A DNA stretch of 64,000 nucleotides. Source: Escherichia coli (GTDB taxonomy: Bacteria > Pseudomonadota > Gammaproteobacteria > Enterobacterales > Enterobacteriaceae). This document shows, in pieces, positions 45,001 to 51,000 of the stretch; position 1 is the stretch's first letter; every line of letters begins with the position of its first letter. The DNA is taken from assembly GCF_030013595.1 (NCBI RefSeq), contig NZ_CP122769.1; one strand, written 5' to 3'. Made by a program: the position numbers.

Positions 45001-48000
45001 TTAAGAGGGTATTGAAATGAATGCTATACAAAAGTTAGTTGAATCTATTCTTGTTAAAATGGGTTTTGTTGGCGCTGTAGTGGAAAATATATATTTGGAT
45101 TCAAAACCATTTCGGCATATTCGATTTGTGGCTGATATTCCAGTAATATCTTTTCTACCTCATTTGGTGAAATATCTTAAGGGTGCAGACCATCTTTACA
45201 GTGGTAACGATGATTTGCATCCTCTTTTCATTTATTTTTCCGAAGCGGCTACATTAAAAGCAGGTCCTGTAAATCTCGCGAACTTTCGTTTTGAAGTTTC
45301 TATAGCTTCAACTCATTTACGACTGGTCTCAGAGCAGCCTGATTTGCTTTTCAAAGGATTTAACCGGGATAATCTAGAATACGTTTATTACCGCTCAGAT
45401 TTGGCCTCTAGGGATCTTATACTAGGCCTTGTTGAACACGGTTCTCCTTTCATAAAACATCTACATGGACTTATACAAAAGCGAATTTTAAACGAGTTCT
45501 CTCTGATTTTTTCTGTTCTTGAAAAGATTTTAGAAAGCGCGAAGCCACAAATTCTTGCTTGCTTCCATAGTGTTGATTATGAAATGAACGTAAAAATAAT
45601 AGCCGAAGCTATACCTGAAACTGTATCTAATCAGATAGTCACATCTGATTATATAGTTAATGTTAGCGCCAATGATATAAGACTGTAATTCGCCATTTGG
45701 GTTGTCCGCTCCACCCAACATGTTGTTTCCTTGAGGTTCTCACACCAGAAAGGACATCGACATGCTGAGCAGAGAGGACTTTTACATGATAAAGCAAATG
45801 CGTAAGCAGGGTGCGTACATTGTCGATATTGCAACTCAGGTGGGTTGCTCTGAGCGCACCGTCAGACGCTATCTTAAATATCCTGAGCCCCCGGCCAGGA
45901 AGACACGCCACAAAATGGCCAAACTGAAGCCATTCATGGACTATATCGACACTCGTCTGGCTGAGAACGTCTGGAATGGCGAGGTCATCCTCGCGGAAAT
46001 TAAAGCGATGGGTTACACCGGCGGGCGCTCCATGCTGCGCTACTACATCCAGCCCAAACGCAAAATGCGGCCATCAAAGAAAACAGTCCGCTTCGAGACC
46101 CAGCCCGGTTACCAGCTGCAGCATGACTGGGGGGAAATCGAAGTGGAGGTCGCGGGACAACGATGCAAAGTTAACTTCGCGGTTAATACGCTGGGGTTCT
46201 CACGTCGCTTCCATGTCTTCGCCGCACCAAAGCAGGACGCTGAACACACCTATGAATCCCTGGTTCGCGCCTTCCGCTACTTCGGTGGCAGTGTGAAAAC
46301 GGTGCTGGTTGATAATCAGAAAGCTGCAGTGCTGAAAAATAACAACGGAAAAGTGGTGTTCAACTCCGGGTTCCTGTTGCTGGCCGACCACTATGACTTC
46401 CTGCCACGGGCCTGCCGCCCGCGCAGGGCCAGAACCAAAGGCAAAGTGGAGCGGATGGTTAAATATCTTAAGGAGAACTTCTTCGTCCGGTACCGCAGGT
46501 TCGACAGCTTCGCCCATGTTAACCAACAGCTGGAGCAGTGGATGGCTGATGTGGCTGACAAGCGGGAGCTTCGTCAGTTCAGACAGACACCAGAACAACG
46601 CTTCGCGCTGGAACAGGAGCATCTGCAGTCGTTGCCGGATACGGACTTCGATACCAGTTACTTCGACATCCGCCATGTCTCCTGGGACAGCTATATCGAG
46701 GTTGGCGGCAATCGTTACAGTGTTCCCGAAAACCTGTGCGGGCAACCAGTCTCAATACGTATATCGCTGGATGATGAGTTGCGGATCTACAGTAATGAGC
46801 AGCAGGTAGCCTCACACCGGCTCTGTTCAGCATCATCTGGCTGGCAGACGGTACCGGAGCACCATGCCCCGCTCTGGCAGCAGGTCAGCATGGTTGAGCA
46901 TCGCCCACTGAGCGCTTATGAGGAGCTGCTGTGATGCATGAACTTGAAGCACTGCTGAGCCGCCTGAAAATGGAGCACCTGAGCTATCACGTTGAAACCC
47001 TGCTGGAGCAGGCAGCGAAAAAAGAGCTGAACTACCGGGAGTTCCTGTGTATGGCGCTGCAGCAGGAATGGAACGGCAGGCATCAGCGTGGCATGGAGTC
47101 CCGGCTGAAGCAGGCTCGCCTGCCATGGGTCAAAACGCTGGAGCAGTTCGACTTCACCTTCCAGCCAGGTATCGATCGTAAGGTTGTCCGGGAGCTGGCT
47201 GGGCTGGCGTTCGTGGAGCGCTGCGAGAATGTGATCCTGCTGGGACCTCCTGGTGTTGGTAAAACCCATCTGGCTGTTGCTCTCGGTGTAAAAGCAGCAG
47301 ATGCGGGGCACAGAGTACTCTTCATGCCACTGGACAGGCTGATCGCCACGCTGATGAAAGCGAAACTGGAAAACCGGCTGGAGCGCCAGCTACAACAACT
47401 GAGTTATGCCCGGGTGCTGATCCTGGACGAAATAGGCTATCTGCCGATGAACAGAGAAGAAGCCAGCCTGTTCTTCCGGCTACTGAACCGTCGATATGAA
47501 AAAGCGAGCATCATCCTGACGTCAAATAAAGGCTTCGCAGACTGGGGAGAAATGTTCGGGGATAACGTGCTGGCAACGGCGATCCTGGATCGGCTACTGC
47601 ATCACTCAACCACACTAAATATCAAAGGAGAAAGCTATCGGTTAAAGGAAAAACGCAAAGCCGGAGTGCTGGCCAAAAACGCAACGCCAATCAGTAATGA
47701 TGAAATGGCGGAAAGCGGACAGCAAAAGTGATCAAATAGCGGACATTAAAAATGGCGAAAACCGGCCATAAATCTTGGCGTTGACATTAATTCTATATCA
47801 GATGCGGACAAGTTTATAAATCATGTTCGTCGCTATTTAGCAGGCAGGGTAATGAAGAGGCGGATATACGCTGAATTAGATGTTTGTGAAGAAACATCAA
47901 GTATTTCACTAGTGAACTTAGGATGCTTTACGTCTCCTCTGCTCGTTACGGAATATCAAATGTTTAAGCCACACTCTTCAGGGTTATATCGAAAAGCTAT

Positions 48001-51000
48001 AAACAACTCCTTAAAACAGTTCAAACCAGAAATGCATGTACCTTCTGAAGAACTCTTTTATAATTAATCTAACCCATCCGGGAACCTGCTTCCCGGTGGG
48101 AAGCACTTCCTTTTTAGTCATGAGGTAGTGTAAATGTTTAAAGAATCTGACCACGTGGAATTTGTTAGTGCCTTTCTTTATCAAAATTTAGGCCTTAATG
48201 TTTCCGCTGACGATATAACCGTTCAATTATCTGATACTTCGTTCGACAAAGTAACCTTTGATTACGATGTAGATATCGATAATTTAAATTGTATGTTGGA
48301 TCTCTACATATCTGAGCTAATAAAGCACAACGCATCTTACTCCGATTCTATTCTTTTGAAACAAAAAATAATTTATTTTCTTGGAGTATTTAAGAATTTC
48401 GGATTTTTTACGTTTGATATTCGCGGATATAGTAATACTTTAAGCCCAGTTAAAGTTATTGATATTGTTTCAATGATTATTAATGACTGTGAAGAGTTAT
48501 CTAAAGCTAATTCTTCTACTGATGCTATAAGAAATCTTTATCTCGATAAAATGAAGGTGGATGGGAAAGTGTTAGTTGCGAAATTTGCACTTAAACAGTT
48601 TTTTCATTCCGACTTTGGTGACTTTATCTCATTTGTCGAGAAAAGAATTACAGATTGTCTTAATGAAACTTTAAGGATTATCAAAGCTGTTGAACATGGC
48701 TTTGTACGTGTAGGGCAGCATAAGATTAATCGCCGTATTAATGATGACTTAAAGTTATGCATTGATTTCAATACTGATGATTATCCGGCAAATATGCCAG
48801 ATATATATATTAAGTTTAACGATACATTTGATGGGAACGGGGCGTTATATTGTGACAATGATGCCCTCATATCCCTCTATACCGATGTTGCTTCAATTAT
48901 CAATGTGCCGGTGATGATGGAAGTAAGATTGATCAATAAAAGAGGGCGTGTTGTCTGTGATTCTTCGCATTCAACTTACGTATCTCTCGAAAGTAATGAC
49001 CGATACAGAGTAACTGATCGCACATTACTAATAACTGAAGCTTTTGACGATTTTCGTAACGCGTCTCAATGATCCTTTTGCTTCAGTCCAAAAAAGTAAC
49101 TTTGGTTGGCTGAAGACACTTGTCTATGACAATGTAAAATCTGTCGCTGGCATCTTCTTTTAGCTTAACCAAATTTTTATCTAACCCAGTGGGGAAGTCG
49201 CTTCCCTTCTGGGGCACTTCCTCTCAAATTCGAGGTAGTGTATATGACACATTCATCTGATGATAAAAACTATGTCCGAGCAGTTCTGAGTTATCTTGGC
49301 ATAGATTTTGATGAGGCGGATATAGTATTAAGTGTTTGCCATTGTCAAAGTGACGAGCTTTCTTTTACCTGTAATATCAAAGCTATTGAACTCAAGAATG
49401 CTGTTGATTTATATGTCGATAGTATCTCTGAGAATGAAATAGAAGCTTTAAACAGAGAATCTTTAAAATCGCGACTCTGTTACTTTCTTGAGGTGTTTGA
49501 CGCAGTCTCTGGTCAGTACCTTGAAATTTCAGGAAAACACTTTGCAACTAGTCGTTTTGAATATGATGATGTTTGTAGTGAAGTTCTTAGCATGTCTAAT
49601 GATGTTTCTCAGTCGAAAGGTTATGACCGGGATGAATATAACAGACTGATGCAGGTTGATGGTCAGGTTATGATTGCCCGTTTTGCTTTGCAACAGTTCT
49701 GGGATACTCATTTTATTGGACTAATAACATTTGTATCTGAGTCTATAACATCGAGCCTCTATAAAGCTTATGAAACTTTTAGTGATATTAGTTTGGCTTG
49801 CTATAAACTGAGTGAATATTCTTATTCACGCTCTATCAACAGTGAATTGACCCTTAATATTTCACTTAAAGAAAATGACTTCTGTGAGGACCTATCTGAT
49901 TGCTATATGGAAGATGAGGCTTTACCTTCTGGTAGGGTAATTTCTCGACGCAACAATGACTCCATAATAAGTATTTATGAGAGCTATGCTGCGGCTTCTT
50001 ATATTCCGATGATTGCATCTTTGGAAGTCGTTGATGAATACGGCGAAGTGGTTACTGACCTCTGCCATACCGTTTATGTTTCAGAGTTAACCGGTGGGCG
50101 GATTAAAATCCACGACCGTAATGACTTAGTATCTGAAGTTTTCGATAACCTAAGAAATTTAAATCTTGCAGTTGGAGATTCAGTTTCACAAGCTGCTTGA
50201 TTCTTTCCCTGATTTTGATTTTTTCTCACATACTCTTATGGCACGGTTTCCGTGCCTTTTTTTGCCTCGCTTACAAGCGTCTACTCCTCTTCTACCTATC
50301 CCACCTTACATCACCACTTAAAATCTATCTTTCTAATTCCATTATCCTTTTCGTAGCCTCTAATGCTCTGGTATGAACATACTCTTTAAACTCAAAAAAG
50401 TGCTATTAACGAAAAAAAATCCCTAAAGAGATTTGTATACTGTTCTCAACCAAGGAGAGCTCATGAATGAACTAAAATCCAAAAACGAGAACAGTACCAA
50501 AAGCAACTTTCCCCCGGTTGATAATCAGTTTTGCTTTTACCATGTTGATTTCAGCATAGAACGACTACTTTCTACGGCCGAGGATCTCCAGCTTGAGTAC
50601 ATCTTCCAGAAACCTGGAAGTGAAGTAAGAAAGGATTTGGTTGAGCGATTTGAACGTGGAGAGCGCTTTGTTACAGCTTCACACTGTGACAATTTCTGTG
50701 AAATCCTTGGTTGTCAAGGCCATCAGGAAAATGCATAAACCCATAAACCTACATTTCCACTTTTAAGGATGTTCACTAAAGAATGATTGGAGAAAGTATT
50801 TTTGACTGGGTAATTTACGGAATATCCATTTTGATATTTGCCTCAGCACTAATTGAAGGAAAGACAACTCGCTACCCAGCACTTTTTTTCTATGGGAGTT
50901 TAATTTTAATGTTAATCCTGATAGTTGCTGGAGGCCTTAACTGGTGGTTCTACAGGTCAAAATATGGCGCAGTAATCGTTATCTTCACAGTGGTTTCTTT

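Follow-up and report, generated by a model that had tools for sequence, protein, structure and literature searches.

This locus raises a simple question: is the 223-aa open reading frame at 45017-45688 a gene of its own, or the front part of a longer gene that was cut by an insertion sequence (IS)? The window, that is the whole stretch of 64,000 nucleotides analysed here (Escherichia coli, contig NZ_CP122769.1), consists of IncHI2 plasmid backbone. A first-pass annotation had proposed that an IS21-family insertion truncates one member of a tandem gene family. Our analysis supports the truncation and redefines its boundaries. With a probability of about 0.96, an IS21-family element that is complete and probably still active inserted itself into codon 215 of a conserved gene of the IncHI2 backbone, 306 codons long. 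The features are collected in Table 1.

Table 1. Features of the interrupted gene, the inserted element and the surrounding array (positions in the window).
Feature	Position	Strand	Description
Array of ~300-aa orphan genes, IncHI2	43064-50200	+	sizes 292, 311, 306, 312, 318 aa
N-terminal part of the gene	45017-45660	+	codons 1-214 and first two bases of codon 215
Target-site duplication, left copy	45657-45660		TTAA, 4 bp
IS21-family insertion sequence, intact	45661-47786	+	2126 bp; ends 5'-TGTTAGCGCCAA...TTGGCGTTGACA-3', TGT...ACA
Left terminal inverted repeat	45661-45710	+	two internal repeats: L1 from 45661, L2 from ~45685
istA	45762-46934	+	390-aa predicted DDE transposase, N-terminal HTH
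istB	46934-47731	+	265-aa predicted AAA+ helper ATPase
Right terminal inverted repeat	47714-47786	+	repeats R1, R2 and a further copy; last bases TTGACA
Target-site duplication, right copy	47787-47790		TTAA, 4 bp
Displaced C-terminal part of the gene	47791-48067	+	third base of codon 215, codons 216-306, stop
Two-hairpin intergenic spacer	48073-48131	+	MFE -27.7 kcal/mol, z -3.9
Strong post-stop hairpin	48073-48100	+	
Hairpin sequestering the next gene's Shine-Dalgarno sequence	48103-48131	+	

As judged from its predicted proteins and its ends, the inserted element belongs to the IS21 family, in agreement with the first-pass annotation. The istA-then-istB gene pair of the family is present. 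IstA matches NF033546 with 281.9 bits (cut-off 160) and also the Pfam domains rve and Mu-transpos_C_2. IstB matches NF038214 with 298 bits (cut-off 200) and PF01695 (IstB_IS21) with an E-value of 1.3e-88, and its translation contains the Walker A sequence GPPGVGKT and the Walker B sequence LILDEIG. The ATG of istB, taken from the RefSeq annotation, overlaps the TGA of istA (ATGA); an alternative istB start is the GTG at 46931. The ends are terminal inverted repeats of the type 5'-TG...CA-3' and each carries multiple repeats, both of which are family traits. The motif CGCCAWK is found at IS positions 7 and 31 on the left and, as its reverse complement, at 7, 30 and 77 from the right end, and the two ends can be aligned to each other over ~70 nt. 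The 23-mer of the left end is found a single time in the window, while zero occurrences are expected from shuffled sequences.

The exact boundaries differ from those proposed originally. The left end had been placed at ~45685, about 24 bp too far inside, where the internal repeat L2 (TGTAATTCGCCATTT) was mistaken for the terminus. The right boundary, formerly only approximate, is now fixed exactly. A clean target duplication had not been recognized; with the corrected ends it is the tetranucleotide TTAA on both sides. This short duplication, another trait of the family, was checked against the empty site, and the similarity of empty-site plasmids to the window breaks off precisely at 45660/45661. 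Four related IS copies in unrelated contexts have identical end bases and their own 4-bp duplications (AGTT, TCAG, ATGC and CTGC). A 5-bp duplication TTAAT was considered for the site at 45657 and rejected: the IS would then have to begin at G, while the other five copies all begin with TGT, and the junction holds just one T. The TTAA also forms the middle of an imperfect palindrome (ATCTGATTATATAG TTAA TTCTATATCAGAT), which could suggest a palindromic target preference. Such a preference was rejected, because the five other sites of this IS group share neither this feature nor a consensus, and thus we treat the palindrome as a coincidence.

The start codon of the interrupted gene is preceded by a GAGGG Shine-Dalgarno sequence, and the last 4 bases of its N-terminal part are the left TTAA copy. 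The 223-aa reading frame consists of 215 native residues followed by 8 residues encoded by the IS (VSANDIRL), and it ends at a TAA (45686-45688) that lies within the IS, as had been noticed at first sight. When the IS and one TTAA are deleted in silico, the two parts join in frame to a 306-aa reading frame. The downstream stretch was suspected to be the displaced C-terminus and to run from 47750 to 48067; it is in the same frame after excision, but native sequence starts only at 47791 and 47750-47786 is the right end of the IS. From residue 216 to 306 the rebuilt protein is identical to the intact orthologue WP_000991699.1 of plasmid pSTM6-275, and this part can be aligned with nine full-length homologues (303-306 aa) without any gap. 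The 45017-45660 part differs from the intact pSTM6-275 gene in one base (45411, R132K). In pSTM6-275 the uninterrupted gene is annotated as a 921-nt CDS, and its junction region is base-identical to the rebuilt site. Truncation could have failed at the C-terminal alignment or at exact boundaries leaving the upstream reading frame intact, and it failed at neither: native sequence ends at codon 215, and the IS contributes the remaining 8 codons together with the stop.

The displaced 3' part is a promoterless remnant of 91 codons. In the alignment of the full-length homologues the invariant columns cluster at residues 218-240 and 263-291, so that the lost 91 residues contain the densest run of invariant positions of the family. 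Because the removed C-terminus holds this block, the function of the gene would probably be lost, although the 223-aa product, which keeps 70% of the protein, might retain some activity. The surroundings of the insertion site are otherwise untouched.

Could the 223-aa frame and a 71-aa frame downstream (47852-48067) instead be two separate native genes, with the IS sitting in the spacer between them? Both are listed as free-standing in ORF calling, and RefSeq labels the 223-aa frame a 'hypothetical protein' rather than a pseudogene. Against this stand the IS origin of the end of the 223-aa frame, the uniform length of the full-length homologues, and more than 1100 plasmids with a continuous, IS-free 306-codon gene. 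The rebuilt 1050 bp is found as one ungapped piece, at 99.9% identity, in more than 1100 other IncHI2 plasmids; of the 1107 plasmids matched in one piece, 955 reach >=99%. This match to the empty site refutes the two-gene reading, to which we give practically no remaining weight. It also settles the question that BLASTP comparison of the fragments with intact paralogues, the check suggested at first, had answered only unconvincingly.

A second IS copy with 100% identity is found in the same plasmid type, inside hok and in the opposite orientation. Two identical 2126-bp copies that face opposite ways can recombine by inversion and are a well-known source of misassembly, and hence the junctions might in principle stem from recombination between the copies (inversion or deletion) or from misassembly of the repeat instead of a simple insertion. 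Each copy, however, has its own matching duplication, TTAA here and the 5-bp CCTGG at hok, and in IS-free plasmids the two sides of each site directly adjoin each other. Had the copies recombined by inversion, their flanks would have been exchanged and neither duplication would have survived. The same junction is common to two independent complete records and the window. Such an origin is extremely improbable, and simple transposition remains the preferred reading.

Both IS sites are empty in hundreds of sister plasmids. Of 1115 plasmid records, 2 contain the insertion junction; among 276 E. coli records with the flank, none does. The window differs from both junction-bearing records by an extra IS66-family element and by lacking an IS3-family one. 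The identical second copy with its own 5-bp duplication suggests that the IS was active recently, and the two identical copies with intact ORFs and ends suggest that it can probably still transpose. The insertion itself would be a recent event, limited to a small lineage of Salmonella plasmids. A literature search for an IS insertion at this IncHI2 site returned nothing specific.

IS21, first described on plasmid R68, is the prototype of its family, in which target duplications range from 4 to 8 bp. Hundreds of unrelated replicons carry full-length matches to the window IS (query 1-2126), with identities of 88-92%. At 100% identity it is present in two Salmonella IncHI2 records, and the exact variant is found only there; a variant-specific 31-mer gave no exact match among 100,044 representative genomes. 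An E. coli plasmid copy named IS21 by PGAP served for comparison. It has a 390-aa istA followed by a 265-aa istB with stop/start overlap, TGT...ACA ends, repeated IstA-site motifs at both ends and a 4-bp duplication; its length of 2130 bp is within 4 bp of the window IS, and IstA and IstB are each 95.1% identical in protein sequence. At the nucleotide level, full-length identity is only 88.4%. By these comparisons the window IS is a close relative of IS21, and it would probably rank as an IS of its own or as a distant isoform, not as IS21 proper. The nearest full-length relative found is an IS21-family variant that is common on plasmids of Citrobacter, Klebsiella and E. coli, for example pKPC-933d and RCS71_p (IstA WP_048213832.1, IstB WP_048213831.1). 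Its nucleotide identity is 91.6% over 1-2126, which leaves ~8% divergence, and its protein identity is 98.5% for IstA and 97.4% for IstB. The terminal 23-mers are one base from identical, and it makes 4-bp duplications too. The structurally characterised member of the family is IS5376 from Geobacillus stearothermophilus (PMC10122671). There, an IstA tetramer assembles on terminal inverted repeats with two direct repeats ~23 bp apart; the terminal CA is reactive, and target capture depends on IstB without strong target sequence preference (PMC10122671). By family traits the window IS would share this mechanism. The direct repeats of IS5376 are 5 bp (PMC10122671), whereas the window IS made 4 bp here and 5 bp at its second site.

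The interrupted gene lies in an array whose members share size, orientation and a two-hairpin spacer. All five array spacers have this same fold (z -2.2 to -6.9), and the hairpin expected after the downstream fragment is indeed present, as after each neighbouring ~300-aa gene. Kinship at the protein level is much weaker. Among the array proteins, BLASTP finds a convincing relation only between the 312- and 318-aa pair (27%, 3e-37). For the rebuilt protein and its fragments against the window paralogues, the best BLASTP hit is the 311-aa gene with an E-value of 8e-5 at 16% identity, and none is convincing. In hhalign, the rebuilt 306-aa protein matches the 311-aa gene family at 95.8% (E 6.8e-9), and this colinear alignment runs across the insertion point. 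Comparison of single profiles with the 292-, 312- and 318-aa genes was not significant; a broader profile, built after a search of 1.84 billion proteins, was needed for the signals of the 292-aa gene (90.7%, E 1.3e-6) and the 312/318-aa pair (42.5%, E 2.6e-4). In AF2 models of modest pLDDT (62.9 and 76.6), the 306- and 312-aa proteins have their secondary-structure elements in parallel order. The assignment to a tandem family needs to be qualified: the family appears to be genuine yet very divergent, with the 306-aa protein probably related at profile level to its 311- and 292-aa neighbours and its link to the 312/318-aa pair only borderline. The family is also narrow: among 1.84 billion cluster representatives, a profile search retrieved just 38 sequences related to the 306/311-aa branch. 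No array gene had a significant family in Pfam, NCBIfam, PADLOC or PHROGs, no solved-structure neighbour was found for the array proteins, and Rfam over 42000-51000 gave nothing above noise.

Two further readings concern regulation. One is that the event is adaptive or regulatory and not just a knockout, the IS driving or blocking the genes at 48134-50200, or the 223-aa protein gaining an activity. The right end of the IS is a perfect, outward-facing -35 hexamer TTGACA, the downstream genes have the same orientation, and IS21 is known to form a junction promoter with its terminal TTGACA when copies lie in tandem. Nevertheless no -10-like hexamer is present 16-18 bp past the IS end (GCGGAC is there), and the promoter scan found none; on this account an outward promoter that combines the terminal TTGACA with flanking sequence was rejected. 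A strong hairpin also separates the remnant from the next gene, and the rarity of the allele does not suggest selection. We therefore regard an adaptive role as very unlikely. The other concerns the spacers. Conjugative transfer of IncHI plasmids is temperature-sensitive and each ribosome-binding site lies in a stem, which led us to the speculative idea that the stems might work as RNA thermometers, or as coupling devices, and control some uncharacterised function of the plasmid, with the IS allele as a natural knockout. Its chance is slim.

The simple transposition that we favour would have proceeded as established for the family. The IstA tetramer would synapse the multi-repeat ends and the AAA+ ATPase IstB would deliver the target. 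In the sequence, the TGT...ACA ends are joined to a staggered 4-bp cut at TTAA, which was duplicated on repair. The gene is split into a 5' part read as 215 native codons, 8 IS codons and TAA, and a 3' remnant. Nothing contradicts the insertion itself, and it is an ordinary event. It has a parallel in the same array: on pSTM6-275, IS1203 (IS3 family) disrupts a neighbouring paralogue, the orthologue of 48134-49072. The IS family, the gene and the plasmid lineage are different, but the same array is hit. This knockout of another member indicates that the array tolerates disruption, and the gene interrupted here would be dispensable for plasmid survival.

Beyond annotation, this insertion has little importance. 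RefSeq entries of the 223-aa 'hypothetical protein' (e.g. in NZ_CP117034.1) should identify it as the 5' portion of a disrupted gene and connect it to the remnant at 47791-48067. The exact coordinates of the IS, together with its duplications of both 4 bp and 5 bp, are a small, clean data point on target cutting of the IS21 type. The junction can mark the lineage of a few Salmonella IncHI2 plasmids that bear mcr-1, and the insertion would be a natural knockout in an uncharacterised, narrowly distributed IncHI2 gene array.

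The region between 45017 and 48067 contains a 223-aa ORF, two GC-rich genes and a short open stretch finishing at 48067. The GC content is 55% and 50% in the 1-kb windows from 46001 to 48000, compared with 33-40% in the flanking windows. The two GC-rich genes are a classic IS21-family pair. The first product, of 390 aa, scores 281.9 bits against the NCBIfam model 'IS21 family transposase' (cut-off 160), with further matches to Pfam rve and the Mu-transposase C-terminal domain. The second product reaches 298 bits against 'IS21-like element helper ATPase IstB' (cut-off 200) and matches Pfam IstB_IS21 with an E-value of 1.3e-88; both its Walker motifs, A and B, are preserved. 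The istA stop and the istB start share an ATGA overlap.

Coordinates of the insertion sequence (IS) copies, the truncated ORF and the array spacers
Feature	Position	Length	Remarks
IS	45661-47786	2126 bp	
223-aa ORF	45017-45688		
Second IS copy (outside window)	NZ_CP117034.1 181063-183188 (piece L009, 9996-12121)		opposite orientation; inside hok (type I toxin) gene
Array spacer	42986-43063		analysed by folding
Array spacer	43943-44012		analysed by folding
Array spacer	44949-45016		analysed by folding
Array spacer	48068-48133		analysed by folding
Array spacer	49170-49243		analysed by folding

The ends of the element were located by aligning the left flank against the reverse complement of the right flank. 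They form an imperfect inverted repeat of ~70 nt, with TGTTAGCGCCAA from 45661 on the left and TGTCAACGCCAA ending at 47786 on the right, and full-length matches to the segment (query 1-2126) occur across hundreds of plasmids and chromosomes. Its nucleotide identity is 88.4% to copies named IS21 by PGAP and 91.6% to a common unnamed variant; only two records, both Salmonella IncHI2, match it at 100%. Four related copies fetched from unrelated contexts have the same terminal bases, and each is flanked by its own 4-bp direct repeat (AGTT, TCAG, ATGC and CTGC). The corresponding repeat here is TTAA, at 45657-45660 and 47787-47790. The first-pass annotation, which had recognized no clean duplication and only an approximate right boundary, is corrected on both points. 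Its left end near 45685 corresponds to an inner repeat, L2 (TGTAATTCGCCATTT). Two copies of the IstA-site motif CGCCAWK occur in the left end (positions 7 and 31) and three in the right end (7, 30 and 77). This layout agrees with the multi-repeat terminal inverted repeats published for the IS21 family (PMC10122671), in which the repeats are spaced about 23 bp apart and the terminal dinucleotide is CA. The right end terminates in an outward-facing TTGACA; a promoter scan past this end found none, with no -10 element at a usable distance.

The target TTAA is centred in an imperfect palindrome, ATCTGATTATATAG TTAA TTCTATATCAGAT (45624-45660 plus 47791-47803), and a third ATCAGAT motif lies just upstream. 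The palindrome is probably coincidental, because the sites at which this IS group has inserted elsewhere show no such feature.

When the IS and one TTAA are excised, 45660 meets 47791 in frame and a 306-aa ORF ending at 48067 is restored. The rebuilt 1050-bp segment is matched in one piece in 1107 IncHI2 plasmids, at 99% identity or more in 955. Against pSTM6-275 (NZ_CP019647.1), an IncHI2 plasmid with no IS at this site and where the orthologue is annotated as a 921-nt CDS (WP_000991699.1), it aligns without gaps and is identical across the junction; the sole difference is at 45411 (R132K). A 100-nt probe spanning the left junction was fully covered in only two of 1115 plasmid records and in none of the 276 from E. 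coli. All the rest, the prototype R478 among them, lose similarity at the boundary of the IS. Therefore, the 223-aa ORF consists of 215 native residues followed by VSANDIRL and a stop, both supplied by the IS. The earlier proposals that its TAA derives from the left terminus and that the downstream stretch is the displaced C-terminus are thus borne out, with the TAA lying within L2. Relatives of the rebuilt protein are rare (only 15 in 5.8 billion proteins), and the full-length ones have 303-306 aa. As the highest density of invariant columns in their alignment is at residues 218-240 and 263-291, both beyond the break, the insertion is likely to cause loss of function. The gene's place in the IncHI2 backbone is between an upstream block of AAA-ATPase, DUF3150, VWA and toprim genes and a downstream Tus-like gene, with the mobI/mobH relaxase region about 100 kb away.

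NZ_CP117034.1, the record that matches best, is a Salmonella enterica IncHI2 plasmid carrying mcr-1.1 from a pig faeces isolate. A further copy of the IS, with all 2126 bp identical, occurs in it between 5-bp repeats of CCTGG. Once this copy and 5 bp are removed, the hok-site sequence (295 nt) is present at 100% identity along its whole length in those IncHI2 plasmids that match best, and 612 records match it at 99% or more. With TTAA at one site and CCTGG at the other, one element has yielded both 4-bp and 5-bp duplications. Two identical copies could have recombined or been misjoined in assembly. However, each retains its own duplication and contiguous flanks, which excludes an inversion or deletion between them and argues against misassembly. 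A simple insertion at each site is left. Recent activity is indicated by the identity of the two copies, by genes and ends that are undamaged, and by the emptiness of the sites in nearly every sister plasmid.

The window carries an extra IS66-family element and lacks one IS3-family element relative to NZ_CP117034.1, so the junction would mark a small lineage rather than a single assembly. The IS66-family element (22550-25253; ORFs of 216, 115 and 523 aa) is flanked by an 8-bp duplication, ATTTATCC, at 22542-22549 and 25254-25261. A TrbC-family gene for conjugative pilus assembly, intact in NZ_CP117034.1, is divided by it into 21600-22553 and 25368-25835, which may impair transfer of the window's plasmid. 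The IS3-family element lies beside or within the traN start in NZ_CP117034.1 (piece L010, 26382-27712; window about 27718). It is absent from the window, where the 1062-aa TraN ORF (27054-30242) is uninterrupted; thus the two plasmids are related but distinct. Between a traC-like gene and parA, at about 3600-7200, lies a long, internally repeated, GC-richer sequence (about 49%) in which BLAST shows numerous off-diagonal matches (76-92%). Neither an ORF of at least 100 aa nor an annotated CDS is present in this sequence, and its register is unlike that of NZ_CP117034.1.

The interrupted gene is the third of five consecutive same-strand genes of 292, 311, 306 (rebuilt), 312 and 318 aa. No significant match to any of them was found in Pfam, NCBIfam, PADLOC or PHROGs. 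BLASTP links only the 312/318-aa pair (27% identity, E 3e-37) and gives essentially no match between the rebuilt protein and its neighbours. Profile comparison connects the 306-aa and 311-aa families with 95.8% probability (E 6.8e-9), colinear over residues 1 to 243 and spanning the insertion point. Just 38 relatives emerged when 1.84 billion cluster representatives were searched exhaustively with hmmsearch; a broader profile built from these gives a probability of 90.7% (E 1.3e-6) with the 292-aa gene and of 42.5% (E 2.6e-4) with the 312/318 family. At profile level, the proposed tandem family takes in the 311-aa and 292-aa genes, and the link to the 312/318 pair is borderline. AF2 models of the 306-aa and 312-aa proteins (pLDDT 62.9 and 76.6) are suggestive only, with helices and β-hairpins in a common order around a disordered centre. 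All five spacers share one unit, a strong hairpin straight after the stop and then a stem burying the next gene's Shine-Dalgarno sequence (folding z from -2.2 to -6.9). The 'family-type hairpin' noticed after 48067 is one of these. The two-hairpin design could serve translational control and, on IncHI plasmids, conceivably temperature-dependent control. Thus, the best description of the array is that of an ancient and strongly diverged cluster of paralogues, with the kinship of its two branches putative.

The first reading is upheld overall, with its boundaries and duplication amended: an ordinary IS21-type insertion, now mapped precisely, disrupts a conserved orphan plasmid gene. In pSTM6-275, IS1203 (IS3 family) occupies about 7050-9470, in place of the orthologue of 48134-49072. 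The array withstands such damage, and different insertion sequences strike it repeatedly.
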